A DNA stretch of 20,597 nucleotides from contig JANMPT010000098.1 of assembly GCA_031370005.1 (NCBI GenBank), forward strand, positions 1 through 20,597, read 5' to 3'. The notes under the pieces were generated by a model. The model saw only the letters and a program-made list of their open reading frames with translations, did not search any database and had not been told where the DNA came from. Origin of the DNA: Bdellovibrionales bacterium (GTDB taxonomy: Bacteria; Bdellovibrionota; Bdellovibrionia; Bdellovibrionales; Bdellovibrionaceae). Of the stretch, positions 810-18,124 are shown in pieces (position 1 is the first letter of the stretch; every line of letters starts with the position of its first letter). Position numbers and translations under genes: made by a program.

Positions 810-975
810 ATATTCCCAATCTTTTAAAGCAGAGTTAGTCCGTCTCGACGGCGGGAACGCGGCTGAAAAAAAGAGAGCGCAGACTGTTAGATCGAAGCAA
901 CGCTTGGCAATAAGTCGCCTCAAATTCGCTCCCTACGCGCAGCCCACGGTGCTTCCGCAGTTTGGGCAACGATAA
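793..975 (+). pseudogene. Probably truncated toxin-like ORF (N-terminus resembles RelE/ParE-fold starts)
   Basis: ATG overlaps the end of the HTH gene. MPFQPEYSQSFKAELVRLD...KKRAQTVR looks like a strand-helix toxin start. The frame then runs into the antisense of nrdJ (repeat copy 2) and stops at 60 aa. Confidence 0.45.
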
Positions 976-981
976 CATCCG
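929..981. repeat. Direct repeat copy 2: last 15 codons, stop codon and 4 downstream nt of nrdJ
   Basis: Same 53-bp sequence as 207-259, offset by 722 bp. Confidence 0.95.
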
Positions 982-3215
982 CTGGTTAGCACGGTGTCGT
1001 TACCGCACTCGGGGCACTTCATTGTCCAATGCGCTTTTTCTTCTAATTTTTTAAGATTCAAGGGCTGACTGACCTTGCTGCCATCACGGTAGATGGCAAC
1101 GGCCTTTAGGCCTAACTTCCAGGATTGAAGATAAATTTCACTGATGTCTTTTTCAGTTGCGGTGCTTGGCATATTTACTGTCTTCGAAATCGCACCACTG
1201 ACAAAAGGCTGAACCGCCGCCATCATCATGATATGGCTCTCTGGTGACAGAGATCGTTGATCAACTTGAGCTGTGGCACAATCAAAAATTGGCAGATGCT
1301 CTGATTTCAGGTGAGGAGCCCCCTCAATACTGCGATGCTCTTTGAGATAGGCAAGAATGCTTTCTACTTCCTTCTCAGAGTATTTTAGCACCCGCAGAGC
1401 CACCGGCACTGATTGATTGACGATCTCCATCTCGCCACCGCCGACAAGTTTTTTATATTTTATGAGCGAAAAATCCGGCTCAATTCCCGTGGTATCGCAA
1501 TCCATCAAAAGACCAATGGTTCCGGTTGGCGCAATCACGGTCGCTTGAGCATTGCGGAATCCATGTTTTGCTCCCATAGCCAACACATCTTGCCAAAGCT
1601 CTTCACAGGTTTGCTTGAAGTCCTCCGGCAAAAGTGGCCATGGAATCTTGTCCAAAGCTTTGGCATGTTTGCCAATCACCTTCAGCATGGTTTTTTTATT
1701 TTTAGTGAAGCCCTTAAATGGACCGCGAGTCTCTGCCATTTGCGAACTCGTCAAGTAGGCAATTCCATGCATCAGGCTTGCAATCGCACCAGCCCATGCT
1801 CGCCCCGCTTTACTATTGTATGGAAGGCCTTTTCTCATCAAAAAACTTCCCAAATTGGCAAAGCCCAAGCCCAGCGGGCGGTATTTATGACTATTCTCCG
1901 CGATTTTTACTGTGGGATAGCTTGAATAATCCACTAGAATTTCTTGAGCCACAAACATGATGCGGGCCACATGCATAAAACTTACCAAATCAAAGTCCCC
2001 TTCTGGAGTCATAAATTTGGTCAAGTTAATTGAAGCTAAGTTACAAGCGCTGTCATCGAGGAACATATACTCGGAGCAGGGGTTGCTCGCACGAATTTCG
2101 CCGTCTGCTGGACAAGTATGCCACTCGTTGATGGTATCATGATATTGCACGCCCGGATCCGCGCACATCCATGCCGAATGTACGATGTGATCCCAGACTT
2201 CTTTCGATGGCAAAGTCCTTAGAGTCTTACCATTAACTCGTGCCTTCAACTTCCAGTCTTTGTTATCTAAAAGACCTTTCATAAAAACATTCGGCACTCG
2301 TACCGAGTTATTGGCATTCTGCCCTGCCACCGTACGATAGGCTTCGCCTTCGAAGTCTGCTTCGTAGCCAGCAGCAATAAGGGCGTGGGCCTTCTGTTCT
2401 TCCTTCATTTTCCAATCAATAAAATCTAAAATTTCAGGATGATCCAGATCCACGCAAACCATTTTTGCGGCTCTGCGCGTGGTGCCTCCGGATTTAATTG
2501 CCCCGGCTCCACGATCAAGGACCTCTAGAAAAGGAATAAGTCCAGAGCTGACCCCGCCGCCACTAAGGAGCGGCTCGTACTTACTACGCAAACGCGAAAA
2601 ATTTGTTCCCGATCCAGAGCCATATTTGAAAAGTTTTGCCTCCGTCTTTGCCAAATCAAAAATACTCTCAAGAGAATCTTCAACACCTTGAATAAAGCAG
2701 GCCGAACACTGAGGTCTTTCGTAGGCGTTGTTAATTTTGCGAATAGATCTGGATTTTTCATCCCAAGCAAAGTGCTCGCTTTTAGAGACGATGCCATAGC
2801 TATTCAGCCCCACGTTAAACCACACCGGACTATTGAAGGCCGCCCGCTGTGAGTACAAAATATACTTTAGCTCTTTTGTAAAAACCTCAGCTTGTTGCTT
2901 ATTGGCAAAGATCCCTCCCTGATGGATTCCGGCTTTAACGATGGCTTCAGTAACTCTATGAACCATTTGTTTCACGGAGTCTTCGCCCTTAAATGTGTCT
3001 GTTTTTTTTCGGAAGTATTTACTTGCAGCGATGTCCACAGCAAGCTGAGACCAAGTCTCCGGAGCCTCTACCTTTTTCATTTTAAAAAAAACACCACCGC
3101 TGCGGTCTTTGATTAAACAATCCCGACGACTCCATCGGAACATCGCTTCCGTATCTTTTATACCCGAAGTAAAATACTCCGCAAAAACCATGCTCTGTAT
3201 TTTATTTTTTGCCAT
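933..3215 (-). CDS. nrdJ: Vitamin B12-dependent (class II) ribonucleotide reductase, 760 aa
   Basis: Motifs [36 protein letters not shown] (thiyl Cys), [17 protein letters not shown] and GAISKTVN; C-terminal CPEC...CPNC zinc ribbon. Confidence 0.96.
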
Positions 3216-3270: not shown

Positions 3271-4428
3271 ATGTCGAACCCAGCCAAACCCATTTATTTG
3301 GATTACAACTCTACCACTCCTGTGGACCCTTATGTTTTTGCTGCCATGGAGCCTTACTTTAAGACTCACTTCGGCAATCCATCGAGCTTTGCTCATCAAT
3401 GGGGTTGGGCAGCACAAAAAGCTGTCGACAAAGCTCGCGAACAAGTCGCATCACTGATCGCAGCGCGACCTTCAGAGATCACATTCACCTCCGGAGCCAC
3501 TGAAAGTAATAACTGGGTGATCTTTGCTTTAATCGAAAAATTCCGCGCCGAAAACCCAAAGGAGCCCATTCACTTCCTAGCAAGCCATATCGAACATAGC
3601 TCAGTGATGAATGCGCTAAAGGAAGCGCAGCGCCGGGGTGTAGAGGTTGATTTTGTAAAAACCAATAAGTACGGCCAAGTTGAATTTGAGACCGTGGCTA
3701 AAGCCCTTAAACCCCATACAAAACTTATGAGTTTTATTTGGGTGAATAATGAAATTGGTACGATCAATCGCCTGAAGGAACTCACTCAACTTGCTAAAGA
3801 AAAACAAATCTATATTCATAGCGACGCCACACAAGCCCTCGGCAAAATCCCAGTTGATATTCGCGACACTCCCTTGGATTTTCTCTCGGCATCGGCTCAT
3901 AAATTTTATGGTCCAAAGGGCGCGGGAATTTTATATATTCGAGGAGCACATCCGAAAGTGACTCTGCCACCTTTTATTTTTGGCGGGGGACAGGAGCTGG
4001 GACATCGCTCCGGCACTCACAATGTCCCAGCCATTGTCGGACTTGGCGCTGCGGCAGAACTCTGCCAAAAACTTATGCCTGAAGAAATGACTCGAACCAC
4101 GGAGTTAAGAAATTATCTTTGGTCCGGAATTCAAAAAAATAATCCTGAAGCTTGGCTCAATGGTCACCCCACCGAGCGTTCGCCAATTAATCTCAACCTT
4201 ACTTTTCCGAAAAAAAATATAGAATTACTATTGCCAAAACTTGGTCGCCTGGGATTCAGCCAAGGCTCGGCCTGCCATACCGGAAGCCTCGAAGTCAGTC
4301 CGATTTTAACGGCAATTGGCCTATCCCCAGAAGAAGCTCGAGGCACTCTCCGCCTAAGCCTTGGGCGTTGGACAAGCAAAGAAGATTTAGATATTGCCAT
4401 GGCAAGTATTGCTGAGGCTATGAATTAA
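3271..4428 (+). CDS. iscS: Cysteine desulfurase, IscS/NifS family (385 aa)
   Basis: IYLDYNSTTP, FTSGATESNN, HSDATQ, PLP-lysine motif SAHKFYGPKG, RSGT and catalytic-Cys loop SQGSACH. Confidence 0.93.
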   Translation: MSNPAKPIYLDYNSTTPVDPYVFAAMEPYFKTHFGNPSSFAHQWGWAAQKAVDKAREQVASLIAARPSEITFTSGATESNNWVIFALIEKFRAENPKEPIHFLASHIEHSSVMNALKEAQRRGVEVDFVKTNKYGQVEFETVAKALKPHTKLMSFIWVNNEIGTINRLKELTQLAKEKQIYIHSDATQALGKIPVDIRDTPLDFLSASAHKFYGPKGAGILYIRGAHPKVTLPPFIFGGGQELGHRSGTHNVPAIVGLGAAAELCQKLMPEEMTRTTELRNYLWSGIQKNNPEAWLNGHPTERSPINLNLTFPKKNIELLLPKLGRLGFSQGSACHTGSLEVSPILTAIGLSPEEARGTLRLSLGRWTSKEDLDIAMASIAEAMN

Positions 4429-4477
4429 CCAAATAATTTCAAATGCTTACGAAATTGCACCAATTCATACTACAGGC

Positions 4478-4506
4478 TTCTACTCATGAAACGCCTGTGG
4501 TATGAT
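4478..4506 (+). promoter_or_regulatory. Putative sigma70 promoter for iscA
   Basis: TTCTAC (4478-4483), 17-nt spacer, TATGAT (4501-4506) with extended -10 TG. RBS TAAGGAG precedes GTG 4533. Confidence 0.5.
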
Positions 4507-4532
4507 GAGGTACTTGCGTAAGGAGAATTTCC

Positions 4533-4859
4533 GTGATTACGATCTCAGAAACTGCTGCTAAAAAACTAGCCGTTCTTAAAGCTGAAGAGGGCCAAATCGA
4601 CGCCGCCTTCCTTCGGGTTGAGGTTAAAAAAGGCGGATGTTCTGGCTTGTCTTATAAAATGAATTTCGACACCATGGCTCGCGAGGGTGATAAGGTCTTT
4701 GAAACCAATGGTCAAAAAGTCGTGGTTGATCCTCAAAGTATTCTTTATATTCTAGGAATGACCCTGGAGTTTTCTGGCGGCTTGAATGGCAAGGGTTTTG
4801 TCTTCAATAATCCGAATGCTAGTAAAAACTGTGGTTGTGGCTCCTCATTCAATGTTTAA
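4533..4859 (+). CDS. iscA: A-type Fe-S cluster carrier (IscA/HesB family), 108 aa
   Basis: GGCSGLSY and C-terminal NPNASKNCGCGSSF motifs. Confidence 0.93.
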   Translation: MITISETAAKKLAVLKAEEGQIDAAFLRVEVKKGGCSGLSYKMNFDTMAREGDKVFETNGQKVVVDPQSILYILGMTLEFSGGLNGKGFVFNNPNASKNCGCGSSFNV

Positions 4860-5736: not shown

Positions 5737-6288
5737 CTAGAAGCTGCCGCCCCCGGAAAGAACTATAAAATACTGAGTCTCATCCTTAGGAAGTCCTATA
5801 CCCATTAAATCTTCGCGAGTTTTAAAATAGGACAAATACTTCGCTCCGCCGCCCAGACTAATCCCACCGAGCTTCAAGATGATCCCCGCCTCGGCTGTTG
5901 CTGCGTTATTATCTGCGGATGCAAACCGAAGACCTGGCCCTGCGAAGGCCTGAAATCCCAAACTTTTATCCTCAGTACTCGCATCAAAAATGGCCAAAAC
6001 TGCGGAGTCCAAACCGCTCACACCCTGAATATTGGAACCAAAGCGAGTGAAAATCCCATTCTTCCAGTTCAACCAATCCGTAAGATACCAATTTAAATTT
6101 AATTTTAATTCAGAATAGGTATTGCTGTTTTCGATCCCCCTTGAAGCACTGATATCATAGATAAATGTCGGGTGAGTATCTGGAAATTTTCGTATGTTTG
6201 GCTCTGTTCGACACCAAGCCAAGTTTGCCCAAAAAAATAAAAATGAAAAACTCATCCTTAAAAAAATATTTGTCATGGCAGACCTCAT
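5737..6288 (-). CDS. Hypothetical exported protein, likely small outer-membrane beta-barrel (183 aa; start uncertain)
   Basis: Hydrophobic signal-like N-terminus, alternating amphipathic strands (ELKLNLNWYL, FQAFAGPGLRF, ISLGGGAKYL) and terminal Phe. ATG abuts the ferredoxin stop. Confidence 0.65.
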   Translation of the reverse strand: MRSAMTNIFLRMSFSFLFFWANLAWCRTEPNIRKFPDTHPTFIYDISASRGIENSNTYSELKLNLNWYLTDWLNWKNGIFTRFGSNIQGVSGLDSAVLAIFDASTEDKSLGFQAFAGPGLRFASADNNAATAEAGIILKLGGISLGGGAKYLSYFKTREDLMGIGLPKDETQYFIVLSGGGSF

Positions 6289-6792
6289 TTAGTTTTTGGG
6301 TTGCGACTTTTGATTTCTTCCGCGGGGCCTTCCCTGTCGGTGCTTTTGCTTCTGTTGAGGCGGACGCGACTCTTGCGGCGGCTGAGACGGAGCTCCCTCT
6401 TCAGGCTTTTCAGTTAACAAGATTGTATCTTGAACTGCCTGGGATTCTTTTTGTTTTTGACTTCGGAACCCGCGAACTTTTTTATTTTGATTCTCCTGCC
6501 GCTCAAGTTGCTCAGTAAGATCCACGGTCACATCGCCAAAACAGTGTATTTGGCAGGAAAGTCGGCGACTATCAATACGCCAGTTAGTACCAATGAGACC
6601 TAACTCAGCTTTGTTCGGCGGAAGCACATTGTTTTCACCTTCAACAACACGCACTCGACATTCCGCACAGCTGGGAACGCCTTTACAAATAGACTTGATC
6701 TCAATGTGATTTTCTGTCGCAATCTGCAACAGGCTTTTTTCCGGCGTCACATCAAATTCAACATTTTGCGGAATAAATTTAACTTTCATCAT
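6289..6792 (-). CDS. 2Fe-2S ferredoxin-domain protein with a basic low-complexity C-terminal tail (167 aa)
   Basis: C-x5-C-x2-C (CKGVPSCAEC) plus RLSCQ; Q/P/R/K-rich tail. Confidence 0.88.
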   Translation of the reverse strand: MMKVKFIPQNVEFDVTPEKSLLQIATENHIEIKSICKGVPSCAECRVRVVEGENNVLPPNKAELGLIGTNWRIDSRRLSCQIHCFGDVTVDLTEQLERQENQNKKVRGFRSQKQKESQAVQDTILLTEKPEEGAPSQPPQESRPPQQKQKHRQGRPRGRNQKSQPKN

Positions 6793-6801
6793 GCCACCAC
6801 A

Positions 6802-8025
6802 TTACTTAATTATGATTTTCACAAATTTCTTTTTGCCGGCCTTTAATACAAACTGTTCTCCGCTTTTAAGATCCCATTTAGCCTTTGAATCCGACAGCTT
6901 CTCACCATCCCTTTGGACACCGCCACCTGTGATTAAACGCCCAGCTTCACTATTGCTAGAGGCAAGACCTGCTTTAACCATTAGAGCACAGACTCCGAAT
7001 TGATTTTCGGCAAAAACTTCAAACACTGGAACTTCGTCTGGAAGCCCTTTTTCTACAAAAATACGATTGAATTCGTCTTCAGCGTGCTGAGCGGCTGCTT
7101 CCGAGTGAAAACGCCTGATCAAGAACTTTGCTAAAGTCACCTTCACATCACGAGGATGCTTACGCCCCTCTTTCACATCCATTTGCAGCTGCGACAACGC
7201 AGAAGCCGTAATATCAGTCAAAAGCTCATACCAACGATACATAAGCTCATCTGAAACTCGCATTGTTTTACCGAACATGTCTTTGGGCGTATCCACTACA
7301 GAAATATAATTATCCAGACTCTTAGACATCTTGTTCACACCATCCAAACCCTCAAGGATTGGCATAGTAAGAACGCACTGTGGCTCCTGTCCATAAGCGC
7401 TTTGTAAATCCCGGCCCACGAGTAAATTAAATTTCTGATCAGTCCCGCCCATCTCGACATCGGACTTCAGCATCACGGAATCATAACCTTGCGTCAGCGG
7501 ATACAAAAGCTCATGAAGTGAAATCGGGCTTCCTGATTTAAAACGATTCGTAAAATCATCACGCTCCATCATCCTTGCGACGGTGTAGCGCGAGGCCAAA
7601 CTTATCACTTCAGAAAATTGCATTTTCTCACACCAATGAGAGTTAAATACGATTTCAGTTTTCTCTGGGTCAAGAATTTTAAAGATCTGAACTTTGTAAC
7701 TGCGAGCATTCTCTTCGATCTCTTCGCGAGTCAATATCGGCCGTGTCGTATTTTTCCCGGAGGGATCGCCAATCATTGCTGTAAAATCCCCGATCAAAAA
7801 TTGTACATGATGACCCAGGTCCTGAAAAAGCTTCAGTTTATTAATCACCACAGTATGGCCCAAATGAATATCTGGACGTGTAGGATCTGCCCCGAGTTTA
7901 ATTTTTAGTGGCTGATTCTTCGCTTTACTGCGCGTAAGTTTTTTCAACATATCGTCATCGCTGATAAGTTCCGCGACGCCGAATTTAATTCTCTCAAGCT
8001 GTTCGCGAGGATCCATGAACGACAT
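6802..8025 (-). CDS. tyrS: Tyrosine--tRNA ligase, 407 aa
   Basis: [13 protein letters not shown] (HIGH motif), [22 protein letters not shown] and a C-terminal S4-like domain ending AGKKKF. Confidence 0.97.
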
Positions 8026-8028
8026 CGA

Positions 8029-9594
8029 CTACCTCGCGTGTTCCACAGAACGACTCTCGCGAACAACCGTGACCTTCACTTGACCTGATTGTGGTATCTC
8101 GCGCTCAATCTTCCGAGCAATATCACGGGCCAACATCGCAGACTGATCGTCGGTAACTTTGCTGCTTTCAACCATTACGCGCACTTCCCGACCAGCTTGT
8201 AGAGCAAATGTTTTTAAAACGCCGTCAAAGCTGTTGCCAATACTTTCAAGATCTTCCAGTCGATGAATATAAGAGTCCATGTGCGGACGACGAGCCCCAG
8301 GACGAGATGCAGACAAGATATTAGCCGCGTGAACAATCCACGCCAAAGCTGTGCTTGGTTTTTCATCATCTTGATGAGCACGAATCGCATGACAAATCTC
8401 TTCAGACTCACCGTATTTTTTTGCCCACTCCGCGCCCACAATGGCATAGCTACCTTCAGCAGTGTGTTCAATTGCGCGGCCAATTTCATGCAAAATCCCA
8501 GCGCGACGAGCTTGCTTAACATTCATTCCCATTTCGCCAGCAAGTAGGCCAGAGATATATGCCACCTCAAGAGAGTGATTCAAAACATTCTGAGCATGAG
8601 TTGACCGATATTTCAAACCACCAAGTAGCTTAATAAGCTCTGGGTGCATGTTCGGAATACCAAGCTCCGCCACTACGCGATCACCTTCTTCTTTAATGGA
8701 TTTCGTGATTTCCGCTTTTTGCTTTTCAACAACCTCTTCAATGCGTGCGGGATGCACTCGACCGTCTTCCATGAGCTTTTCAATGGTCCGTTTTGCAAGT
8801 TCGCGGCGAACCGGGTCAAAACCAGAGATCACCACGGCCTCTGGAGTATCGTCCACAATCAAATCTACGCCACACATGGCTTCCAAGGTACGAATGTTAC
8901 GTCCTTCACGACCGATAATTTTACCCTTCATCTCATCACTCGGCAAAGCCAAAACACTGACGGTTCTTTCAGATGTGTACTCGGAGGCAAAGCGCGAAAG
9001 TGCTGTGCTAATAATACGGCGAGCTCTTTTGTCAGCTTCTTTTTGAGCTTCATCCTCGATTTGAGTTATTTTTTTTGCGGCTTCCACTTTTGCTTCGTCT
9101 TCAAGAGCTGAAATCAATTGGCGACGGGCTTCTTCAGCAGTCATGGCAGCCACAGACTCTAATTTTTGCTTTAACTCAGAAATATGAGTATCCGTCTTTT
9201 TCTCAAGCTCTTTGATACGGTTCTCAGAGATGGCAACTTTTTCTTCCCGGTCTTTCAACTGAGAGACAAAACGTTCGTTCTCATCTAATTTTTGTTTAAA
9301 CTGATCATCGACCTCTTTTAGACGACGATCCAATTGAGACTCTTTATTTTTCAACTGTGATTTGTGCTTATGTATGTCAGTCTCAACGTTTTTACGCGCT
9401 CGGGATTCAAAATCCTTCGCTTTTGTCTCTGAATCCTTTTTAATTTTAGCGGCTTCAGAATTTGCTCTGTTAACAATACGATCAGCCTCCATGCGCGCTG
9501 ATTTTTTCTTCGCTTCATCTTGAATTTTCTTGATAATGAAGACTATTGCGCCCCCGAAAACCAAACCAAGAATTGATGTAATAACAACTTCCAT
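8029..9594 (-). CDS. rny: Ribonuclease Y homolog (TM anchor, coiled coil, KH, HD, C-terminal domain) with degenerate HD motifs, 521 aa
   Basis: N-terminal TM helix, long coiled coil, KH motif MKGKIIGREGRNIR, DGRVHPARIEE, SASRPGAR and QAGREVRV. The HD doublet reads HE. RBS AGGAG upstream. Confidence 0.95.
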   Translation of the reverse strand: MEVVITSILGLVFGGAIVFIIKKIQDEAKKKSARMEADRIVNRANSEAAKIKKDSETKAKDFESRARKNVETDIHKHKSQLKNKESQLDRRLKEVDDQFKQKLDENERFVSQLKDREEKVAISENRIKELEKKTDTHISELKQKLESVAAMTAEEARRQLISALEDEAKVEAAKKITQIEDEAQKEADKRARRIISTALSRFASEYTSERTVSVLALPSDEMKGKIIGREGRNIRTLEAMCGVDLIVDDTPEAVVISGFDPVRRELAKRTIEKLMEDGRVHPARIEEVVEKQKAEITKSIKEEGDRVVAELGIPNMHPELIKLLGGLKYRSTHAQNVLNHSLEVAYISGLLAGEMGMNVKQARRAGILHEIGRAIEHTAEGSYAIVGAEWAKKYGESEEICHAIRAHQDDEKPSTALAWIVHAANILSASRPGARRPHMDSYIHRLEDLESIGNSFDGVLKTFALQAGREVRVMVESSKVTDDQSAMLARDIARKIEREIPQSGQVKVTVVRESRSVEHAR

Positions 9595-9608
9595 ATGTGG
9601 ACTCCTAC

Positions 9609-10178
9609 CTATTTACACTGAATAATTTCATTTTCCGTGACCAGAACATTGACGCGGATATCATGTTCCTCCTCGGGAAGATCCTGTTCAAGAATCTGAC
9701 AATTAAAACAAATCCCAATCCTTGGTACCAGGCAATCCGCCAAAGCCTTGTCATAAAAGCCACGACCCTTTCCCAAGCGACAACCTTTTTTATTAAAACC
9801 TAAACCTGGAACCAAAACCCCAGTAATCTCCTCAATGCCGAGCTTGCGAGAGTCCTCAGCAGGTTCCATCACGCCAAAAGGGCCTTTGATAAAATTCTGC
9901 GAGATATAAAATGTTAAGTGATCAGCTTCCATACGTGGATAAGCCCACTCAATGTGATCCATATGGCGATAGCATGGGGTTAAATCAGGCTCCTGAGGCA
10001 GGGCCAAATACCCGGCCCAAATTCCCTTTTCGTTTTTAAGGTAATCCATAAGATTTTCACAAATCTGATGCTGAATTTGGACAGAGGAGTGCGGAGACTC
10101 TTTTTGTAAAAGAGCTTTCATGTGGTTACGCCATTGGCGCTTGCCCCACGACTGCATTTTATCTACACGCAAATTCAT
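9609..10178 (-). CDS. ygfA: 5-formyltetrahydrofolate cyclo-ligase (189 aa; may start at Met8)
   Basis: VLVPGLGFNKKGCRLGKGRGFYDKAL and EEHDIRVNVLVTE motifs; typical zapA-ygfA-rny context. Confidence 0.92.
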   Translation of the reverse strand: MNLRVDKMQSWGKRQWRNHMKALLQKESPHSSVQIQHQICENLMDYLKNEKGIWAGYLALPQEPDLTPCYRHMDHIEWAYPRMEADHLTFYISQNFIKGPFGVMEPAEDSRKLGIEEITGVLVPGLGFNKKGCRLGKGRGFYDKALADCLVPRIGICFNCQILEQDLPEEEHDIRVNVLVTENEIIQCK

Positions 10179-10203
10179 TCCAGCCTCAAACTACAAAACA
10201 GGG

Positions 10204-10506
10204 TTAAACTGTTCTATTGAGTTTGGAATTCTCTAGATCGATTGAAAGTTTAAGAGCTTTTTCTTCTATTTTTGCAAGCTCACGATAAGCTTTTCGTTTT
10301 AGAAGAATCAGTTCCTCCGCCACATTAAGTGCCGTAAGAACCGCTGCATTTTGAAAAGAACCATACTTAGTAACACCCATAGCCTGGTCCATTTTATTGT
10401 TCACAAATTCGACAAGTTCTTGAACTGTTGCATCATCATGGGAGCTTTTGAGTTTGTATGGAACTCCCGCAATCAGAAAGTCATAGTTTTTTTTCTCAGA
10501 TGCCAC
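10204..10506 (-). CDS. zapA: Cell division protein ZapA, 100 aa
   Basis: IAGVPYKL, FVNNKM and AVLTALNVAEEL followed by a coiled coil. GTG start with GAGG RBS. Confidence 0.9.
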   Translation of the reverse strand: MASEKKNYDFLIAGVPYKLKSSHDDATVQELVEFVNNKMDQAMGVTKYGSFQNAAVLTALNVAEELILLKRKAYRELAKIEEKALKLSIDLENSKLNRTV

Positions 10507-10677: not shown

Positions 10678-11313
10678 TTATTTTTGAAAACAACTGCAAA
10701 CAATGCCAAAGTCCTTTTTGTCTTCGCAAAGAAGTCGCTTATTGGCAAAAGTGTCACTCAATTCCAACTCAAAAACATTTTGGAAATTTCGTTTGAAGCT
10801 CAAACTTAATCCATTGAGCTTTGTGTCAAAATAGGAGCGCTCATCCTCTATGACCTCTTGGTTCAAAAAATATTGATCCAATACTTTCTGAGGAGGATTG
10901 ATGCGTTGAGACTGAGGCAAATCCACCGGAACCCCAACTCCCTTGGCGTCTAACTTTTCGAGGCTTAAAATATAATCAAACTTAAACTTTTTAGCCGATT
11001 TTGCGGAAAGATTTAGTCTTTTCTTATGACCCTCAGGATCCTTGAGAATGACCTGACGATATCTGAGAAGGGATTGTGATGTGACAAACTTTCGATCGAT
11101 GTCCTCTTTCAACTGATTTAGGTCAACCTTCAAGGCTAGGGTCTCGTTTTTAAGCTCAGGGTAACAATGAGTCAGATTTACATAAGAAACAGACACGGGC
11201 CTCTCTTTAGGCTTCTGGACAGCGTCGGCAGTGGGCGACAAAGCAATCCCCAAGGCAACACAAGTGATTGCGCAAGATATAAGAGACAAAAAACCCCCTC
11301 GAGAAATCCCCAA
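10678..11313 (-). CDS. Hypothetical secreted protein, 211 aa
   Basis: Signal peptide-like N-terminus ending ADA; Lys-rich body; C-terminal C-x9-C-x-C. No recognised family. Confidence 0.7.
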   Translation of the reverse strand: MGISRGGFLSLISCAITCVALGIALSPTADAVQKPKERPVSVSYVNLTHCYPELKNETLALKVDLNQLKEDIDRKFVTSQSLLRYRQVILKDPEGHKKRLNLSAKSAKKFKFDYILSLEKLDAKGVGVPVDLPQSQRINPPQKVLDQYFLNQEVIEDERSYFDTKLNGLSLSFKRNFQNVFELELSDTFANKRLLCEDKKDFGIVCSCFQK

Positions 11314-11334: not shown

Positions 11335-12981
11335 CTAATGATTTTTAGTTAAAAAGGCAATCACGTCTAAATCTTGACCAGCAGCCACCCCCGCCCCCGG
11401 CATTGGACCTGTGATTTCATCCACAGTAAACCCAGTAAAGGCATCAGTATTTCTTTCGTGCTGGAAGCGAAGCCACTTTTCGTGATCATACCAAAGGCGT
11501 TTTTGTCCATCATCGCGACAAGACCTCAGCTCATCACCTTGACCACCCCAGCGAAGTTCAGCGCAGTGATAAGGATCAAAACTCAATTCATAAATACGGG
11601 CACGGGCCTGATCAAGATTCATTCCAACATCGCGGCCATCACTATTTTTGTAAGTGATTTGGCATGCACTTGCGCTTTTTTTGTAGGCATTGAGCATGTC
11701 ATCCGCGAGATTTACGCCATGATAATCCACTTTGCCATCGTGAGATCTATAGTGGCTTAAAGCATCACTGACATAGGTTCTAAGTTCTTTAAACGCCACT
11801 TTCAAACGAGCGTCTCTGGCTGGAGTAGCATAGGTTTCCCACTCGCCCTCAGCGCCATAGATGTTATTCGGTAAACGAATCGGATGTGCCCGTTGATTAA
11901 TGCCGGCAGAGATGGCCACCTGCACGGCCACAGCTCTTTCCTGCATTCCTTTGCACAACTCTTGAGTCATAATTTTAACATCATCAACGGGGTTCTCTAT
12001 CAAGGGCCCATCAGCCAAACGATTGCGAACCCAATCATAATAGTTCATTGTTTCACCTTGAAAAACAAACTGCGCCTGTCGCCAGTCTGGAGTCGCACTT
12101 GTGCCATAATACTGTTCAGTACTATACATCGGGAGATCACGGTCTTTCGCACCTAAAATACTGCCTCCATAATAACCGTCAACACTATCCCATGTCGCAC
12201 CAGTTAAATACAGTGGGCGCCAGTTTTTAAAACCCGCCCCCTGCCCCGGATAAGCACGCATGAAACGCGAATTATAAACTCCAGAGGTCAAACTATTATC
12301 AGGATGTGCATCGATATAATAAAGTCGCCCATCATTGGTAACCTTGTATACAGTGACAACATGGCCATTGGGATCATAAATTACAGTGCCAGGGCGAATC
12401 GCATCACGGGTGATTTTGACCGGATAAAAATCAGAATATAATTTGTCTGCATCCATACCTTTATAACTTACCCGAAAATTTGCCGAAGAGACTTCGTTAG
12501 GAAGCAGATCATTGAAAATTTCAAGAGCATTTGGAAATTTCATTTTGCCAAGAAATGACTTTTGTACAATTACAGAATAACGCTCACGTACGACATTGCC
12601 ATAAGGTGAGTAACGAATGTCTTTAACCAGGTCTCCAGTTCCCTGAATGGGACTGACACCAGTTACAAACCCAAAGGGCAATTGGTTTCGCCACGCATAG
12701 TAGGCCCGCAAAAAATATGGAAAATCTGCACAGTCGGAAAACATCTGAAGTCCAGCAGGATCCGTAGAGGCATAGGGATTAACCTTCGGATTGCGAAAAC
12801 ATTCCGCAACGGTGGCGCAGAGGCCACTTGAAACCCCATCTCCGACCTGAGCGATATAACGAATATAATTTTCCTCGTCTGAGACTCCCCACTCGGCCTT
12901 TGCGAGCTTCCAGGGAGCTACAGCGTAGGCTTGGACGGCTATAAGAAATGTTAACACTACGAAAATAAAAAAGAAGCTCAC
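11335..12981 (-). CDS. Large secreted protein with papain/NlpC-P60-like catalytic motifs (548 aa from GTG 12981; ORF open from 13062)
   Basis: Signal peptide SFFFIFVVLTFLIAVQAYA follows GTG 12981. Motifs SDCADFPY and IRPGTVIYDPNGHVVTVY...YYIDAH. Confidence 0.75.
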   Translation of the reverse strand: MSFFFIFVVLTFLIAVQAYAVAPWKLAKAEWGVSDEENYIRYIAQVGDGVSSGLCATVAECFRNPKVNPYASTDPAGLQMFSDCADFPYFLRAYYAWRNQLPFGFVTGVSPIQGTGDLVKDIRYSPYGNVVRERYSVIVQKSFLGKMKFPNALEIFNDLLPNEVSSANFRVSYKGMDADKLYSDFYPVKITRDAIRPGTVIYDPNGHVVTVYKVTNDGRLYYIDAHPDNSLTSGVYNSRFMRAYPGQGAGFKNWRPLYLTGATWDSVDGYYGGSILGAKDRDLPMYSTEQYYGTSATPDWRQAQFVFQGETMNYYDWVRNRLADGPLIENPVDDVKIMTQELCKGMQERAVAVQVAISAGINQRAHPIRLPNNIYGAEGEWETYATPARDARLKVAFKELRTYVSDALSHYRSHDGKVDYHGVNLADDMLNAYKKSASACQITYKNSDGRDVGMNLDQARARIYELSFDPYHCAELRWGGQGDELRSCRDDGQKRLWYDHEKWLRFQHERNTDAFTGFTVDEITGPMPGAGVAAGQDLDVIAFLTKNH

Positions 12982-13068
12982 CTCGCGGCGTCGCTCCCGA
13001 TAAAATTCTCGGCGAACTACGCCATGAACAGAATTTGCCACTAGCCCCCCAGCCACTCTCAAGTCATT

Positions 13069-13142: not shown

Positions 13143-14207
13143 CTAACTAAAAATACTTTCAACAAATTCGTGGGGGGAAAAGCTGCGAAGATCCTGGATT
13201 CTCTCACCAACTCCTATAAATTTAATTGGAATCTGAAGCTCATTTGCTAGTCCCACGGCAACCCCGCCTTTTGCAGTACCATCCATTTTGGTGAGAATTG
13301 CCCCCGTAAGCGACAGTGCTTTGTTATATTCCTTGGCTTGAATCAATGCGTTTTGCCCAGAGTTCGCATCAAGCACAATGATCACCTCATGTGGAGCTTC
13401 AGGAATCACCCTGGCCATCACGCGTTTCATTTTCTTGAGCTCTTCCATCAAATTGTCTTGAGTGTGCAATCTTCCAGCCGTGTCAATGATAACAATGTCA
13501 TACTTTTGCCCTTTGGCCTTGCTGACAGCATCGAAAACAACGGCACTTGGATCCGTCACTCCCTCTGGAGAAAAAATTTCTACCTGGGCTCGTTCAGTCC
13601 ATACTTTGAGTTGCTCTCCTGCTGCTGCACGGAATGTATCGCCCGCAGCGACAAGAACTTTTTTACCTTGGCTAGCAAATTGAGCCGAAAGCTTACCTAT
13701 ACTTGTAGTTTTGCCGGCACCGTTAACACCGACGATCATGAGCACGGTGGGGCCCTCTTTTGTAAATCGAAGCAAATTACTAGGAAGCTTTGAAAAAACA
13801 TCTTCCATTTCAGTCTTCAAGGTTTCGCGCACTTTTGCGAGATCCGTTTTTTCTTTTCGACTCATGTCAACAAGTGCACCCATAAGCTTTTGAACGGTCA
13901 CAGAGCCAAGATCGCTGGTGTAAAGAACCTCTTCGATCTCTTCAAGATGCGCTAAGGGCTCGTTAGCTTTAAAAAGCAGCTTAATACGGCCAAAAATATT
14001 TTCTTCAGTGGCCTTGAGGGCCTTTCGAAGATCGACGGCACTTTCCTCAACAGCCTGTACTTCAACAGTCTTTACACCAACCACTGAAGGCGATACGCCT
14101 TTATTTTTTAAAAGCATGTACCAGAGTATTGCGAAAATTAAAGTGCAGACTACGCCCAGAACCGCAAATGCCAATATCGCATAGTCGTCATTTAAATTGC
14201 GAAACAT
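13143..14207 (-). CDS. ftsY: Signal recognition particle receptor FtsY with N-terminal TM helix, 354 aa
   Basis: GVNGAGKTT, DTFRAAA, DTAGR, TKMDGTAKGG and GVGE motifs. Start overlaps the smc stop (TAATG). Confidence 0.97.
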   Translation of the reverse strand: MFRNLNDDYAILAFAVLGVVCTLIFAILWYMLLKNKGVSPSVVGVKTVEVQAVEESAVDLRKALKATEENIFGRIKLLFKANEPLAHLEEIEEVLYTSDLGSVTVQKLMGALVDMSRKEKTDLAKVRETLKTEMEDVFSKLPSNLLRFTKEGPTVLMIVGVNGAGKTTSIGKLSAQFASQGKKVLVAAGDTFRAAAGEQLKVWTERAQVEIFSPEGVTDPSAVVFDAVSKAKGQKYDIVIIDTAGRLHTQDNLMEELKKMKRVMARVIPEAPHEVIIVLDANSGQNALIQAKEYNKALSLTGAILTKMDGTAKGGVAVGLANELQIPIKFIGVGERIQDLRSFSPHEFVESIFS

Positions 14208-17200
14208 TACTGAATGTCCTGAAGACTCACAGATACCATTGTTGAAACCCCTCGCTCCTGCATCGTCACACCGTACAGCTTGCCCGCCACTTCCATCGTA
14301 TGTTTATTATGCGTGACAACGATAATTTGTGATCGCTTTGCCATCTCCCGAACGAGGTCATTAAAACGAAAAACATTGGCATCATCAAGTGGAGCGTCAA
14401 CTTCATCCAGTAAGCAATAAGGGCTTGGTTTCACCAAAAAGATCGAAAAAACCAAGGCAACCGCGGTTAGAGCCTTTTCGCCACCCGACATCAAGCTGAC
14501 ATTTTGCATTTTCTTGCCTGGAGGTTTGGCAATGATTTCAATACCCATTTCACCTTTTTCCACGTCTTCATGAAGCTCTAATCTGGCCTCACCACCACCA
14601 AACAAGACAGGGAATACCCGAGTAAAGCGGTCATTAACGAGATCAAAAGTCTCTTTAAAACGCTTAGAGCAGATTTTGTTGATACGATCAATCACCTTAC
14701 GAAGTTGTTCCTTTGCTTCCGTCAAATCAGCATGTTGCTTGGTTAGGAACTCGTAACGCTGGGCAGTCTCTTCATACTCTTCGATCGCTGATAGATTCAC
14801 TTCGCCAATCTTCGCGATTTTCTCACGAAGTTCTCTCAATTGAGCTTCGGCTTCCGCAGGATCGCCTTCGCGACTTTGGTACTTTTCAACCACATCAAAA
14901 AGAATCAGCATATATCGCTCGCGTATTTGATCCACGAGATATTGCTCTTTCATGCGCGCTTGCTCTAATTTCAATTGAGCCTCGTTCATCCGAGCCTGTC
15001 GCTCATTGCGTGCTCGTTGGGAGCTGGCGATTTCATCGCCCCTCATTTGAATTTGCGCGGCCATCTGCTCATAAGTATCTTTCTCGGTAGACATCCGAGC
15101 CTTGAGGCCCTCAACTTCGCGAATATTACGTTCAAACTCAATTTTTTTCTCTTCAAGTGTCATTTGACTGTCAGTCATTTGTGTGGAGTACATTTGAGAC
15201 TCTTCACTCATTCTTGAGAGCTGAGCTTCCAATTCACTCAAAGACTTATTCACCATTTCCAACTGACGAAGCACACCATTGTACTCTTGGGTTCTAGAAA
15301 CAGATTCTACCTGCAGTTCACGAACCTCATTTTGAAAGCCATCAAACCCAAGACGTGTCGACATCAGTTCAGCATTTAGCGCTTCAGTTTGCTCTTCAAG
15401 GCTTTTCTTCTTCGCGCGAGCCTCTTCAAGATTTACTATCAAATCATGTAACCTGGCTTCCTGTTGCTCCACTTGCTCCGTAATTTTATGAAGTTCACGC
15501 CCTTGTCGCTCTACCGCATGTTGAGCATTTTGAAGTTCATTTTCAGAACGCTCCACATCCTTGCGAAGCTCAATGACTTTAATTTCCTGCTCAACTTTAC
15601 GTTTTTGAGCACCCTCAAAATCATTCACAACATTGGCTAATTGTTCCTCTAGTTTTTTTAGAGCTTGCTGAGCCAAAGCTAATTTTCCAGCCCATTCATT
15701 TTTTTTCTCAGTCAGTTCTTTGATTTCGCGTCGACGTTTTAAAACACCAGAATCTGCAGACTCCACAGATCCGCCCGTCAACATTCCATCAGCCGACAAG
15801 GTGTCTCCGTCGGCTGTAACAAATGTCCAACCTTGATATTTTGCTCTGAGACTCAGGGCTGTGCGAATCGAATCCACAATTGCCACGCCATCTAGCAAGT
15901 ATGAAACTGTGTTTTGATATTTTTCATGTGAACGAACGACATCCTTTAGTATGACTTGAACTCCAGGCTCGGCGCTTGGGGCTGAGCCTAACACTTTATG
16001 AGCAGTTTCAGTCGCTGACATAAAACTAGAACGACCCGACTTTGCTTCTTTTAGATGGTCGACAGCCTCAATCGCTTTGCTATCATCAGCGGAAAGTAAC
16101 ATTTGAAGACGAGAGCCCAAAGCTGCTTCCATCGCCACTTCGTATTTACTTGGGACTTCTACAACCTCAGAGACTGGTTGAAACATAACCGAACCGTCTG
16201 CTGTGATCTCCTGATACTTCGCTTTCTGCCAAAGCATGACGTTTTTCACACCCTCTTGAAAACCTTCGAAATTAGAGTGCAGGTTTTCAAGGCCATAGAG
16301 TCTAGAGGTTACTTCGTTCAATTGATCTTTGAACTCTTCAACTTCAATTTTTTTAATTACCGACTGTTCTGTTAAGATTTTCTTATTCACTTCAAAAGAT
16401 TCGAAGTCGTTCACCAAATCCAGTTGCATTTGGCGTTCTTTTTCTAGCTCATTAAAAACTTTGCGACGACGGACTTCGAATTCAACTTGCTTTTCACGAA
16501 GTTCATTCACAACCAACTGCTCGCTGTCCCCACGCTCTTTAAGATCTACGATCTGCCCTTGGAGGGAGTTTACACGTGCATCCAAGGAGGACTCAGATTG
16601 GCCTATGGCAAATAACTCACGACGTTTTCCAGTTAGCTCTTCATCTACTTCTGTGATGCGCGATTGTGAATTTTGAAAAATCAGGTTTTTATCATTATAT
16701 TGAGCCGTTAAAACTTCGGACTCTTCTTTTAAAGATTCCACCTGAGAGTTCAGCTGAGCATGCTCTTTAAGCAACAGCTCTTGCCGCGCTTGCTGCTCTT
16801 GCAAAATCGTACCAGTCATTTGCTCATTACGGCGGGCTTGCTCGATTTCGAAACGTAGCTCTTGGATCTCCATCTCTTTTTTTTGAGACAAAGATTGTTT
16901 GTCATAATATTGGATCTGAATCACTTCCAAAGATTTTTCTTTTTCAAGGATCTGCAATTTCAGAGCTTCAAACTGCGCCTGCAAAGCGGAAACATTTGTT
17001 TCACCTTCTACTTCTAAACTTTGCGCTTCATCAAAGATGCGCTGAGCTTCGTCAGCCACTTTACGAAGGTCCGTATATTGGATAGTGCTTAACCAAAGAT
17101 CCAGGTCTTCAATTTGATTTTTAAGGCCACGATAGCGCTCCGCACGCTGAGCCTGTCTTTGCAAAGAATCAATTTGCCGTTTTAACTCACCAATAATGTC

Positions 17201-17785
17201 TTGTAAGCGAACGAGATTCTGATCCGTCGCTTGCAGTTTTCTTTGAGACTCACGTTTACGAACTTTAAACTTCGTAATGCCGGCGGCTTCTTCAATTAAG
17301 GTTCGTCGTTCTTCTGGTTTTGCAGTGATAATTTTACCAATCATCCCCTGAGCAATAATGGAGAAGCCTTTAGAACCAGCTCCTGTGTCCATAAAGATCT
17401 CTTGCACGTCTTTCAAACGAGAGGGCTCTTTATTTACGAAGTACTCCCCCTCGCCATCGCGATGCAGACGACGAGTGACCATAACTTCAGAATGTTTGAT
17501 GTATTTTGCGGGAAAAGGGCCGCCATCATTTTCAAGTGTTAAAGAAACTTCGCACATGCCGAGTGGAGCATAGCCTTCGGCCCCGGCGAAGATAACATCC
17601 GACATCGTTGCCCCGCGAAGGTCCTTCACAGACATTTCGCCCATGACCCACATCAAGGCATCCACAATATTTGATTTTCCGCAACCATTCGGCCCGACAA
17701 TCCCTGTGATACCAGCGTCAAATTGAATAACTGTGCGATCTTTGAACGACTTAAAGCCTACGAGTTCGATTTTTTTGATTCTCAA
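14207..17785 (-). CDS. smc: Chromosome segregation protein SMC (1192 aa from TTG 17785)
   Basis: GFKSF, Walker A GPNGCGKSN, coiled coils flanking a hinge, signature MSGGEK, Walker B/D-loop LLDEVDAPLD and H-loop VTH. GAGGGG RBS lies 5 nt before TTG 17785 (MRIKKIEL). Confidence 0.97.
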   Translation of the reverse strand: MRIKKIELVGFKSFKDRTVIQFDAGITGIVGPNGCGKSNIVDALMWVMGEMSVKDLRGATMSDVIFAGAEGYAPLGMCEVSLTLENDGGPFPAKYIKHSEVMVTRRLHRDGEGEYFVNKEPSRLKDVQEIFMDTGAGSKGFSIIAQGMIGKIITAKPEERRTLIEEAAGITKFKVRKRESQRKLQATDQNLVRLQDIIGELKRQIDSLQRQAQRAERYRGLKNQIEDLDLWLSTIQYTDLRKVADEAQRIFDEAQSLEVEGETNVSALQAQFEALKLQILEKEKSLEVIQIQYYDKQSLSQKKEMEIQELRFEIEQARRNEQMTGTILQEQQARQELLLKEHAQLNSQVESLKEESEVLTAQYNDKNLIFQNSQSRITEVDEELTGKRRELFAIGQSESSLDARVNSLQGQIVDLKERGDSEQLVVNELREKQVEFEVRRRKVFNELEKERQMQLDLVNDFESFEVNKKILTEQSVIKKIEVEEFKDQLNEVTSRLYGLENLHSNFEGFQEGVKNVMLWQKAKYQEITADGSVMFQPVSEVVEVPSKYEVAMEAALGSRLQMLLSADDSKAIEAVDHLKEAKSGRSSFMSATETAHKVLGSAPSAEPGVQVILKDVVRSHEKYQNTVSYLLDGVAIVDSIRTALSLRAKYQGWTFVTADGDTLSADGMLTGGSVESADSGVLKRRREIKELTEKKNEWAGKLALAQQALKKLEEQLANVVNDFEGAQKRKVEQEIKVIELRKDVERSENELQNAQHAVERQGRELHKITEQVEQQEARLHDLIVNLEEARAKKKSLEEQTEALNAELMSTRLGFDGFQNEVRELQVESVSRTQEYNGVLRQLEMVNKSLSELEAQLSRMSEESQMYSTQMTDSQMTLEEKKIEFERNIREVEGLKARMSTEKDTYEQMAAQIQMRGDEIASSQRARNERQARMNEAQLKLEQARMKEQYLVDQIRERYMLILFDVVEKYQSREGDPAEAEAQLRELREKIAKIGEVNLSAIEEYEETAQRYEFLTKQHADLTEAKEQLRKVIDRINKICSKRFKETFDLVNDRFTRVFPVLFGGGEARLELHEDVEKGEMGIEIIAKPPGKKMQNVSLMSGGEKALTAVALVFSIFLVKPSPYCLLDEVDAPLDDANVFRFNDLVREMAKRSQIIVVTHNKHTMEVAGKLYGVTMQERGVSTMVSVSLQDIQ

Positions 17786-18124
17786 ATTAACCCCTCTCAA
17801 TATCCTCTAGAAGTAGCCTGAACACAGAGCAAGTCCTTGGTCCAGGAGTGCCAAAGATCAGTTAACTTTCCCTAGGGATTGAAGCCCTGTCAATCAAAGC
17901 CTACTAAACAGCGGGCTCCTGCTGAAAACTTAAGCTAGCTTGCCATGCAGTTTACGCATTGCGTTTTTGCGTGACGAGCTCCCGGCTACTTTTAAATGAT
18001 TGGCGGCCACAGCAGAATATGACTGATAAAAAATATTCTTTTCTCAATCCCGCCTTATCTTCGCGATATTATGCCCTCGATACAAGAAACATAGAAAATA
18101 ACACAATCAGCATGAGGTATTGTT

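Follow-up and report, generated by a model that had tools for sequence, protein, structure and literature searches.

What keeps a full-length RNase Y in a genome once its HD site has degenerated? The question is raised by a gene in a 20,597-nucleotide stretch of Bdellovibrionales DNA (contig JANMPT010000098.1; the window, meaning the whole stretch analysed), whose product a preliminary description had taken for a membrane-bound RNA-binding scaffold with lost or altered cleavage. We propose, with a probability of roughly 0.6, that this protein, copy A, would be the non-catalytic RNA-binding subunit of a heteromer with a second RNase Y, copy B, encoded elsewhere in the same genome.

An RNase Y with three of seven HD ligands

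The reading frame (9594-8029, minus strand) encodes 521 aa with no internal stop, and AGGAG stands 7 nt before the ATG, so the frame and ribosome-binding site are intact, as first described. Against the RNase_Y profile TIGR03319 the protein scores 624.4 bits (cut-off 454.35), above the family threshold; it contains the Pfam domains RNase_Y_N, KH_1 and HD, and it is the orthologue of 'Ribonuclease Y 1' of B. bacteriovorus HD100 (CAE79098.1, Bd1188). The HD phosphodiesterase motif, H...HD...H...HH...D, comprises seven ligands (PMC8177086, in excerpt), and this set is incomplete in the window protein (3/7). The features of the gene are as follows.

8029-9594, minus strand: rny copy A, encoding a 521-aa RNase Y whose HD site is degenerate (translation and profile matches)
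9602-9606, minus strand: Shine-Dalgarno-like AGGAG, 7 nt ahead of the rny A ATG (sequence)
9529-9594, minus strand: N-terminal membrane anchor, about aa 1-22 (hydropathy)
8977-9531, minus strand: coiled coil, aa 22-206, with a net basic charge at aa 30-100 and in register, free of gaps, with the coil of copy B
8779-8964, minus strand: KH domain, aa 211-272, intact (Pfam KH_1, E 7.9e-10)
8902-8913, minus strand: KH GxxG loop, GREG, aa 228-231, kept in 145/145 A copies and 1/80 B copies
8308-8607, minus strand: HD domain, aa 330-429, fold predicted intact, 3/7 ligands remaining (H340, H369, H407)
8577-8575, minus strand: H340, CAC, ligand kept
8490-8488, minus strand: H369, CAT, ligand kept
8485-8487, minus strand: E370, GAA, replacing the Asp of the HD dyad (codon read)
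8446-8448, minus strand: Y383, TAT, replacing His (codon read)
8376-8374, minus strand: H407, CAT, ligand kept
8371-8373, minus strand: Q408, CAA, replacing the second His of the HH pair (codon read)
8320-8322, minus strand: N425, AAT, replacing the last Asp, the sole change common to all A copies
8032-8307, minus strand: C-terminal domain, aa 430-521, conserved (identity comparison and fold search)

Outside the HD domain the protein has the parts expected of an RNase Y. A hydropathy peak of at least 1.5 marks the N-terminus in 58/58 A copies and 51/51 B copies tested, helices are predicted at residues 2-149 and 153-208, and in a fold search the KH region matches KH domains (Z about 12). The C-terminal domain has been proposed as a dimer contact in B. 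subtilis RNase Y (PMC9775385, in excerpt).

Each of the codons named in the preliminary description (H340, H369, E370, Y383, H407, Q408, N425) is present as first read, and the changed positions are indeed usually invariant, with seven ligands in 32/32 single-copy relatives and in 23/23 matches outside the Chlorobi. Because E370, Y383 and N425 recur in 6/6 other genomes of the genus, and Q408 in 4/6, sequencing error is ruled out, and the loss of D425 is lineage-wide (145/145 A copies).

A second copy with the opposite defect

A tblastn search of the window genome (G000) found one further rny, at G000:C54:72543-74123, encoding 526 aa and 34% identical to A. This copy B has the opposite defect: all seven HD ligands are present, and the KH loop reads CDTKG where copy A has IGREG. 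In the predicted structure of B, strands and helices are still arranged as in a KH domain; a fold search with that model gave no match at E 0.001 or better. Among the B copies listed, scores against TIGR03319 were 385-452 bits, below the cut-off of 454.35. Annotation is in need of correction here: 'ribonuclease Y' and 'Ribonuclease Y 1' are the database names of the dead copy, and B, whose catalytic site is intact, is entered as no more than 'Rnase Y domain-containing protein'. Copy B is unlinked to A and stands alone, and its neighbours vary between families. Since B keeps the catalytic set and is without the GxxG loop, a division of labour fits better than the lone scaffold that had been envisaged.

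As for other ribonucleases, the window genome (99.8% complete) has a gene for a 512-aa RNase E/G; a search of it for RNase J found none. RNase E/G occurred in G000 and in 5/5 other genomes tested and did not separate one-copy from two-copy genomes.

With presence defined as a match at E 1e-110 per query, a threshold of our own choosing, both copies occur in 134/150 Bdellovibrionaceae genomes, A only in 13 (six of which carry a further, weaker match whose sequence was not extracted) and B only in 3. All 25 single-contig genomes of the family have both. So do 13/17 genomes of the sister family, the remaining 4 having one gene with both sites intact, and the other families of the order have one intact rny, except G307 (98% complete), which has B only. 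The A-only genomes include two at 99% completeness, G057 and G099, each with a six-ligand A. Two genes that flank B in a same-genus genome were also not found in G057, as would be expected if the assembly had a gap there or if the gene order differed. G018 carries two B copies on different contigs in addition to A. In the assemblies of G032 (copy A) and G198 (single copy) rny is split into two reading frames, which may be assembly error.

Reciprocal losses, selection and history

Copies were extracted for A from 76/151 family genomes and for B from 67, with 13 and 14 more from other families; they comprise best matches, roughly one from each genus, and unusual cases, a non-random sample, and were assigned to the A, B and single-copy classes by overall similarity, not by motif. 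The GxxG loop was kept in 89/89 A copies and all seven ligands in 0/88 complete rows, whereas B copies had seven ligands in 82/82 and GxxG in 1/80; the KH loop of B aligns poorly, with the second Gly left in 51/81. Complete single-copy genes of the same phylum kept both motifs (seven ligands 32/32, GxxG 33/33). Adding 59 non-duplicate named loci and dropping rows shorter than 430 aa gave an enlarged set of 145 A copies, in which D425 is kept in 0, GxxG in 145 and the full ligand set in 0; the genomes counted are kin, and these counts are not independent events.

The same reciprocity is seen in conservation. Mean pairwise identity was calculated from 47 genome pairs, with two genera reduced to a single genome each, and from 17 single-copy genes. 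For the KH domain it was 0.81 for A-A, 0.45 for B-B and 0.76 for single-copy genes, and for the HD domain 0.59, 0.74 and 0.74, respectively. In the domain that it retained, each copy matches the ancestral gene in conservation; in the other domain it is relaxed. KH is the best-conserved part of copy A (81% vs 59% for HD), and outside the HD domain A is more conserved than B. Values of dN/dS, which had been suggested as a per-domain check, were below 0.1 in every domain of both genes, with dS unsaturated in few pairs (16/171 in one genus, 1/21 in the window's genus), a pattern indicating that purifying selection maintains A and B. Complementary loss of ancestral functions, the mark of a subfunctionalised pair, was thus found at sequence level. 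The view of copy A as a conserved, membrane-anchored RNA-binding protein whose HD metal site is lost therefore stands (KH identity of 81%, dN/dS below 0.1, lineage-wide change).

In a 47-sequence mixture-model tree, the A copies form one clade (support 97) among the single-copy genes of the order, split by the two families (100 each). The B copies form one clade (100) on a long branch outside A and the single-copy genes of the class, those of the window's family making one clade (99) and those of the sister family another (91). A constrained A+B clade was not rejected (p-AU 0.277), so duplication and acquisition are both possible origins of B. A FastTree run without the HD columns placed the intact single-copy gene of G231 inside A, as if D425 had been lost twice; the mixture-model tree, with A monophyletic at 97, was preferred.

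A proposed A-B heteromer

RNase Y of B. subtilis dimerises via a parallel coiled coil, and in a model of the dimer a channel lies close to the KH domains (PMC9775385, in excerpt). The coils of A and B align gap-free with a fixed offset of +1. Over aa 30-100 the net charge in the window genome is +7 for copy A vs -8 for copy B, and A was positive and B negative in 71/71 genome pairs; with means of +7.2 for A, -9.3 for B and +7.5 for single-copy genes, the change lies on the B side. By a strict i to i+5 charge score, A-B pairing differs weakly from the homodimers (mean -2.3; below zero in 61/71), so the charge argument rests on net charge. Opposite coil charges are what an A-B coil would favour, which is indirect evidence, and given its acidic coil B-B pairing looks disfavoured.

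We propose that RNase Y function is divided between two genes in the Bdellovibrionaceae and their sister family. Copy A, at the ancestral locus, would contribute anchor, coiled coil, KH loop and C-terminal domain and be unable to hold the catalytic metals; copy B would contribute the full HD site and go without the KH GxxG loop. In a membrane-bound A-B heteromer, the KH domain of A would then bind single-stranded RNA and the HD site of B would cut it. Since RNase Y dimerises on a parallel coiled coil, an A-B heteromer seems the likeliest working form.

The components of this proposal differ in strength. Copy A very probably does not cut RNA; single HD mutations almost abolish cleavage by B. 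subtilis RNase Y (PMC10303841, in excerpt). Copy B alone is likely to bind RNA poorly; mutation of GxxG weakens binding by KH domains without unfolding them (PMC3413153, in excerpt). Reading from the sequences, we would on balance expect A and B to bind each other and act in trans. A more tentative generalisation, for which we would give slightly less than even odds, is that the main mRNA-decay endonuclease of the Bdellovibrionales could be an obligate heterodimer of two half-functional RNase Y paralogues joined by an acid-base coil, in which the KH domain of one chain would pass RNA to the HD site of its partner.

Copy A might instead be a separate RNA-binding regulator or scaffold, with B cutting as a homo-oligomer whose basic surface replaces the KH loop. 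We regard this as unlikely, although it is the alternative that survives best. Such an A could bind and protect transcripts, damp B as a dominant-negative partner, or recruit degradosome proteins at the membrane. The charge of B after the KH domain has risen to +6.0 vs +1.9, a gain of basic charge by which B could bind RNA alone. Overproduced inactive RNase Y is dominant-negative in B. subtilis, not helpful (PMC10303841, in excerpt). A and B are unlinked, with RPKM values of B 2-3 times those of A, and genomes of one small distant family (f22, below) pair a dead copy with one in which both sites are intact; as GxxG is present in that active copy, retention of a dead copy does not require reciprocal loss. 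However, a regulator leaves two observations unexplained, namely the loss of GxxG in 79/80 B copies when every single-copy gene kept it, and the acidic B coil in 71/71 pairs.

Decay of the metal site

The HD site of copy A has eroded to different degrees. Six ligands are left in 61 of the 145 A copies, five in 4, four in 5, three in 21, two in 52 and one in 2, and copy A of B. bacteriovorus HD100 keeps 2/7. H369 is kept in 144/145 and H407 in 138/145, and the remaining positions changed state on the tree at least 10 (H340), 12 (D370), 13 (H383) and 18 (H408) times. Position 370 is N, G, E, S, A, Y, M or V in A copies and position 425 is N, Y, F, S, C, K or V. From this distribution we infer that D425 was lost first and that the other ligands then decayed repeatedly. 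Tyr occupies position 383 in 71/76 A copies without Asp370 and 0/69 with it, and recurs in several lineages; at a guess, Tyr383 fills the emptied pocket. With replacements varying by lineage and HD100 keeping only 2/7 ligands, 'lost' suits copy A better than the 'altered' cleavage that had been offered as the other option.

It is nevertheless conceivable, at long odds, that A keeps a reduced or different metal chemistry on another substrate, for example at a one-metal site formed by H340, H369 and E370. The near-constancy of H369 and H407 and the six-ligand A copies would agree with this, as would the Chlorobi, which fixed the D-to-N change and kept the other ligands, and Ddi2, which is active without the last Asp, in keeping with the tolerance of HD sites for non-canonical ligands (PMC8177086, in excerpt). 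Since 61/145 A copies and nearly all Chlorobi matches keep six ligands, a D-to-N change alone may not mean a dead site, and given such plastic HD sites an early A may not have been fully dead. Yet there is no conserved replacement set, four positions changing at least 10-18 times on the tree; 75/145 A copies keep at most three ligands; and the HD-GYP protein Bd1817, in which Asn likewise replaces the last Asp, does not act on its substrate (PMC8177086, in excerpt). For the window protein, with 3/7 ligands, the doubt about a dead site is small.

The locus and data from B. bacteriovorus

The neighbours of copy A relevant to its history and to transposon data are the following.

10204-10506, minus strand: zapA, upstream gene of the ancestral rny locus
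9609-10178, minus strand: 5-formyltetrahydrofolate cyclo-ligase gene, upstream gene of the ancestral rny locus
6802-8025, minus strand: tyrS, beginning 3 nt past the rny stop codon, relevant to polarity in transposon data

The gene order is zapA, 5-formyltetrahydrofolate cyclo-ligase, rny, tyrS, ferredoxin, and because intact single-copy genes of the order and class have the same neighbourhood, copy A sits at the ancestral place. Among 80 loci retained of 261, the closest named relatives were Pseudobdellovibrionaceae and Bdellovibrio records at 66-93% identity. A 6S RNA gene is often located between zapA and the cyclo-ligase gene; here the gap (10178-10204) is about 25 nt and no Rfam families were found in the window, so a 6S RNA gene is not at this site. 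The 2Fe-2S ferredoxin-like gene directly after tyrS (6289-6792, minus strand) has a low-complexity basic tail; its place at the rny locus is conserved in 58 loci throughout the class. Three further minus-strand reading frames, 11335-13062, 10678-11313 and 5737-6288 (575, 211 and 183 aa), have signal-peptide-like starts and gave no match in Pfam and NCBIfam scans; relatives of the 211-aa gene lie upstream of zapA in 29 family loci. Ordinary housekeeping genes fill positions 933-3215, 3271-4859 and 13143-17800 of the window, among its housekeeping genes those for B12-dependent ribonucleotide reductase and ftsY (profile matches), and cysteine desulfurase-like, Fe-S scaffold-like and smc genes were recognised from translations.

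Published data on B. bacteriovorus bear on both copies. In the Tn-seq supplements for strain 109J (PMC6561027, in part), EP01_RS15625 'ribonuclease Y 1' (A) has 0 insertion sites in 6/6 samples and is classed as putatively essential; zapA also has 0 sites and the cyclo-ligase gene is ND. With these two genes without insertions and tyrS downstream, polarity could account for the empty A gene. The gene assigned to B by its neighbours, EP01_RS07005 'ribonuclease Y', is absent from the authors' 201 essential genes and shows a sparse-insertion pattern beside normal or tolerant neighbours, with an SD/mean of 1.732 in 2/4 conditions, the value given by two zero replicates of three. B thus looks depleted of insertions, with noise like that of tyrS, pheS and RNase III and also of an L-PSP gene. 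RNase E/G tolerates insertions (W 0.43-0.97) and appears dispensable in the same supplements. Overall, the 109J data fit a need for both copies, with polarity as a confounder for A and noise for B.

Expression points the same way for the two genes. In HD100 RNA-seq supplements (PMC3627812, in part), RPKM goes from 16 to 409 for Bd1188 (A) and from 46 to 802 for Bd2166, a 1584-bp gene assigned to B by length and neighbours; taking the columns as attack and then growth phase from the sheet name, A and B as read both rise between these phases. In contigs from B. bacteriovorus RNA libraries the B gene was covered in 4/4 runs, 3/4 contigs spanning about the gene alone, a weak hint of B transcription, which contigs cannot show. 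The supplements of PMC10627809 other than files 6, 7 and 9 gave no match to RNase Y names.

A last functional alternative is that A took on a role unrelated to B, as a membrane tether for RNA or ribosomes or in division, and that B alone is the RNase. The operon shared with zapA, the absence of Tn-seq insertions in A and its conservation above that of B outside the HD domain would suit such a role. The best fold matches of the HD region of A are glycyl-tRNA synthetase chains (Z 14.4, from a search with A), and the HD-like domain of glycyl-tRNA synthetase is not known to be catalytic. We nonetheless find it improbable, as the zapA neighbourhood is ancestral and common to intact single-copy genes, and the reciprocal KH loss in B would go unexplained. 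That A is a decaying duplicate or a sequencing artefact is hardly credible: ligand positions do drift between lineages and reading frames are split in the two relatives' assemblies mentioned above, but genomes throughout the genus share these codons, nearly all copies have an open frame, dN/dS is below 0.1 and the pair spans two families.

Dead-site RNase Y genes in other lineages

Degenerate sites are found beyond the Bdellovibrionales. The 150 best representatives at 50% identity were retrieved with the A profile, which biases them towards dead forms; 147 were scorable, of which 115 keep seven ligands and 32 lack at least one; GxxG is kept in 149/150. Twenty representatives were looked up, and those named were Chlorobaculum, Calditrichota and Riflebacteria. 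Chlorobi-like matches have D425N in 95/97, with each other ligand kept in at least 95/97 and GxxG kept, whereas all seven ligands were present in 23/23 non-Chlorobi matches of the same search. These matches are RNase Y proteins of green sulfur bacteria, that of Chlorobaculum tepidum included.

In the small distant family f22, a dead-HD rny occurs with an intact rny bearing GxxG in 3/3 genomes (G190, G183 and G378; locus pairs L134/L154, L135/L155 and L309/L310). The dead copy lies at the ancestral locus in the two genomes mapped and does not group with A in the tree; it looks like an independent case or an earlier stage. In another family, f20, the single RNase Y match starts at profile position 166-181 in 5/5 genomes (L157-L161; G356, G246, G299, G221 and G185); these proteins may be without the usual anchor and coiled coil, with KH and HD intact.

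Significance and comparison with known systems

Why RNase Y is a dimer and what its KH domain does in cleavage are open questions in the field, and a 2024 review states that a structural study of RNA binding by the KH domain is not yet reported; a sequence search of the PDB matched 0 RNase Y chains. A natural KH/HD pair makes both questions directly testable in B. bacteriovorus, a predator that has been cultured and is genetically tractable (Bd1188 and, by inference, Bd2166). If the heterodimer is real, RNase Y dimers would work in trans and RNA decay in the cell would come under the control of two genes. The many RNase Y genes with dead sites in other phyla, similar ones occurring in Chlorobi, Calditrichota and Riflebacteria, would then be marked as subunits of similar pairs. 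A literature search, with most subscription papers beyond its reach, found no description of the reciprocal pair; the name 'Ribonuclease Y 1' implies that some database knows of more than one copy.

Retention of an HD fold after loss of activity has precedents in Bd1817, the inactive HD-GYP protein of B. bacteriovorus, which has the last Asp-to-Asn change like copy A, and in the divergent HD domain of RelA (PMC8177086, in excerpt). Both belong to other HD subfamilies, and a paralogue with reciprocal loss is described for neither in the excerpts of PMC8177086. RNase Y itself (B. subtilis Rny/YmdA, S. aureus CvfA, TIGR03319) has the anchor, coiled coil, KH, HD and C-terminal domains in the same order and length as the proteins studied here. 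In the characterised enzyme, KH and HD functions lie on one chain of a homo-oligomer (PMC9775385, in excerpt). Here, they lie on two unlinked genes whose products are 34% identical.

Divided labour is known from other ribonucleases. RNase J1 and J2 form a heteromer in which J2 is weakly active, and we know of no reciprocal loss of an RNA-binding motif in J1. In the archaeal exosome (Rrp41/Rrp42, with a KH-containing cap) Rrp42 is inactive, and in split archaeal tRNA splicing endonucleases catalytic and structural subunits are divided. J1 and J2 of the Firmicutes are, like A and B, two paralogous ribonucleases in one cell (PMC3997798, in excerpt), with a fold that differs from that of RNase Y. 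The archaeal exosome, with its KH platform (PMC9775385, in excerpt), has recognition and catalysis on separate subunits, as proposed for A and B. The folds of exosome and splicing endonuclease are unrelated to that of RNase Y, and A and B are full-length copies with mirror-image losses.
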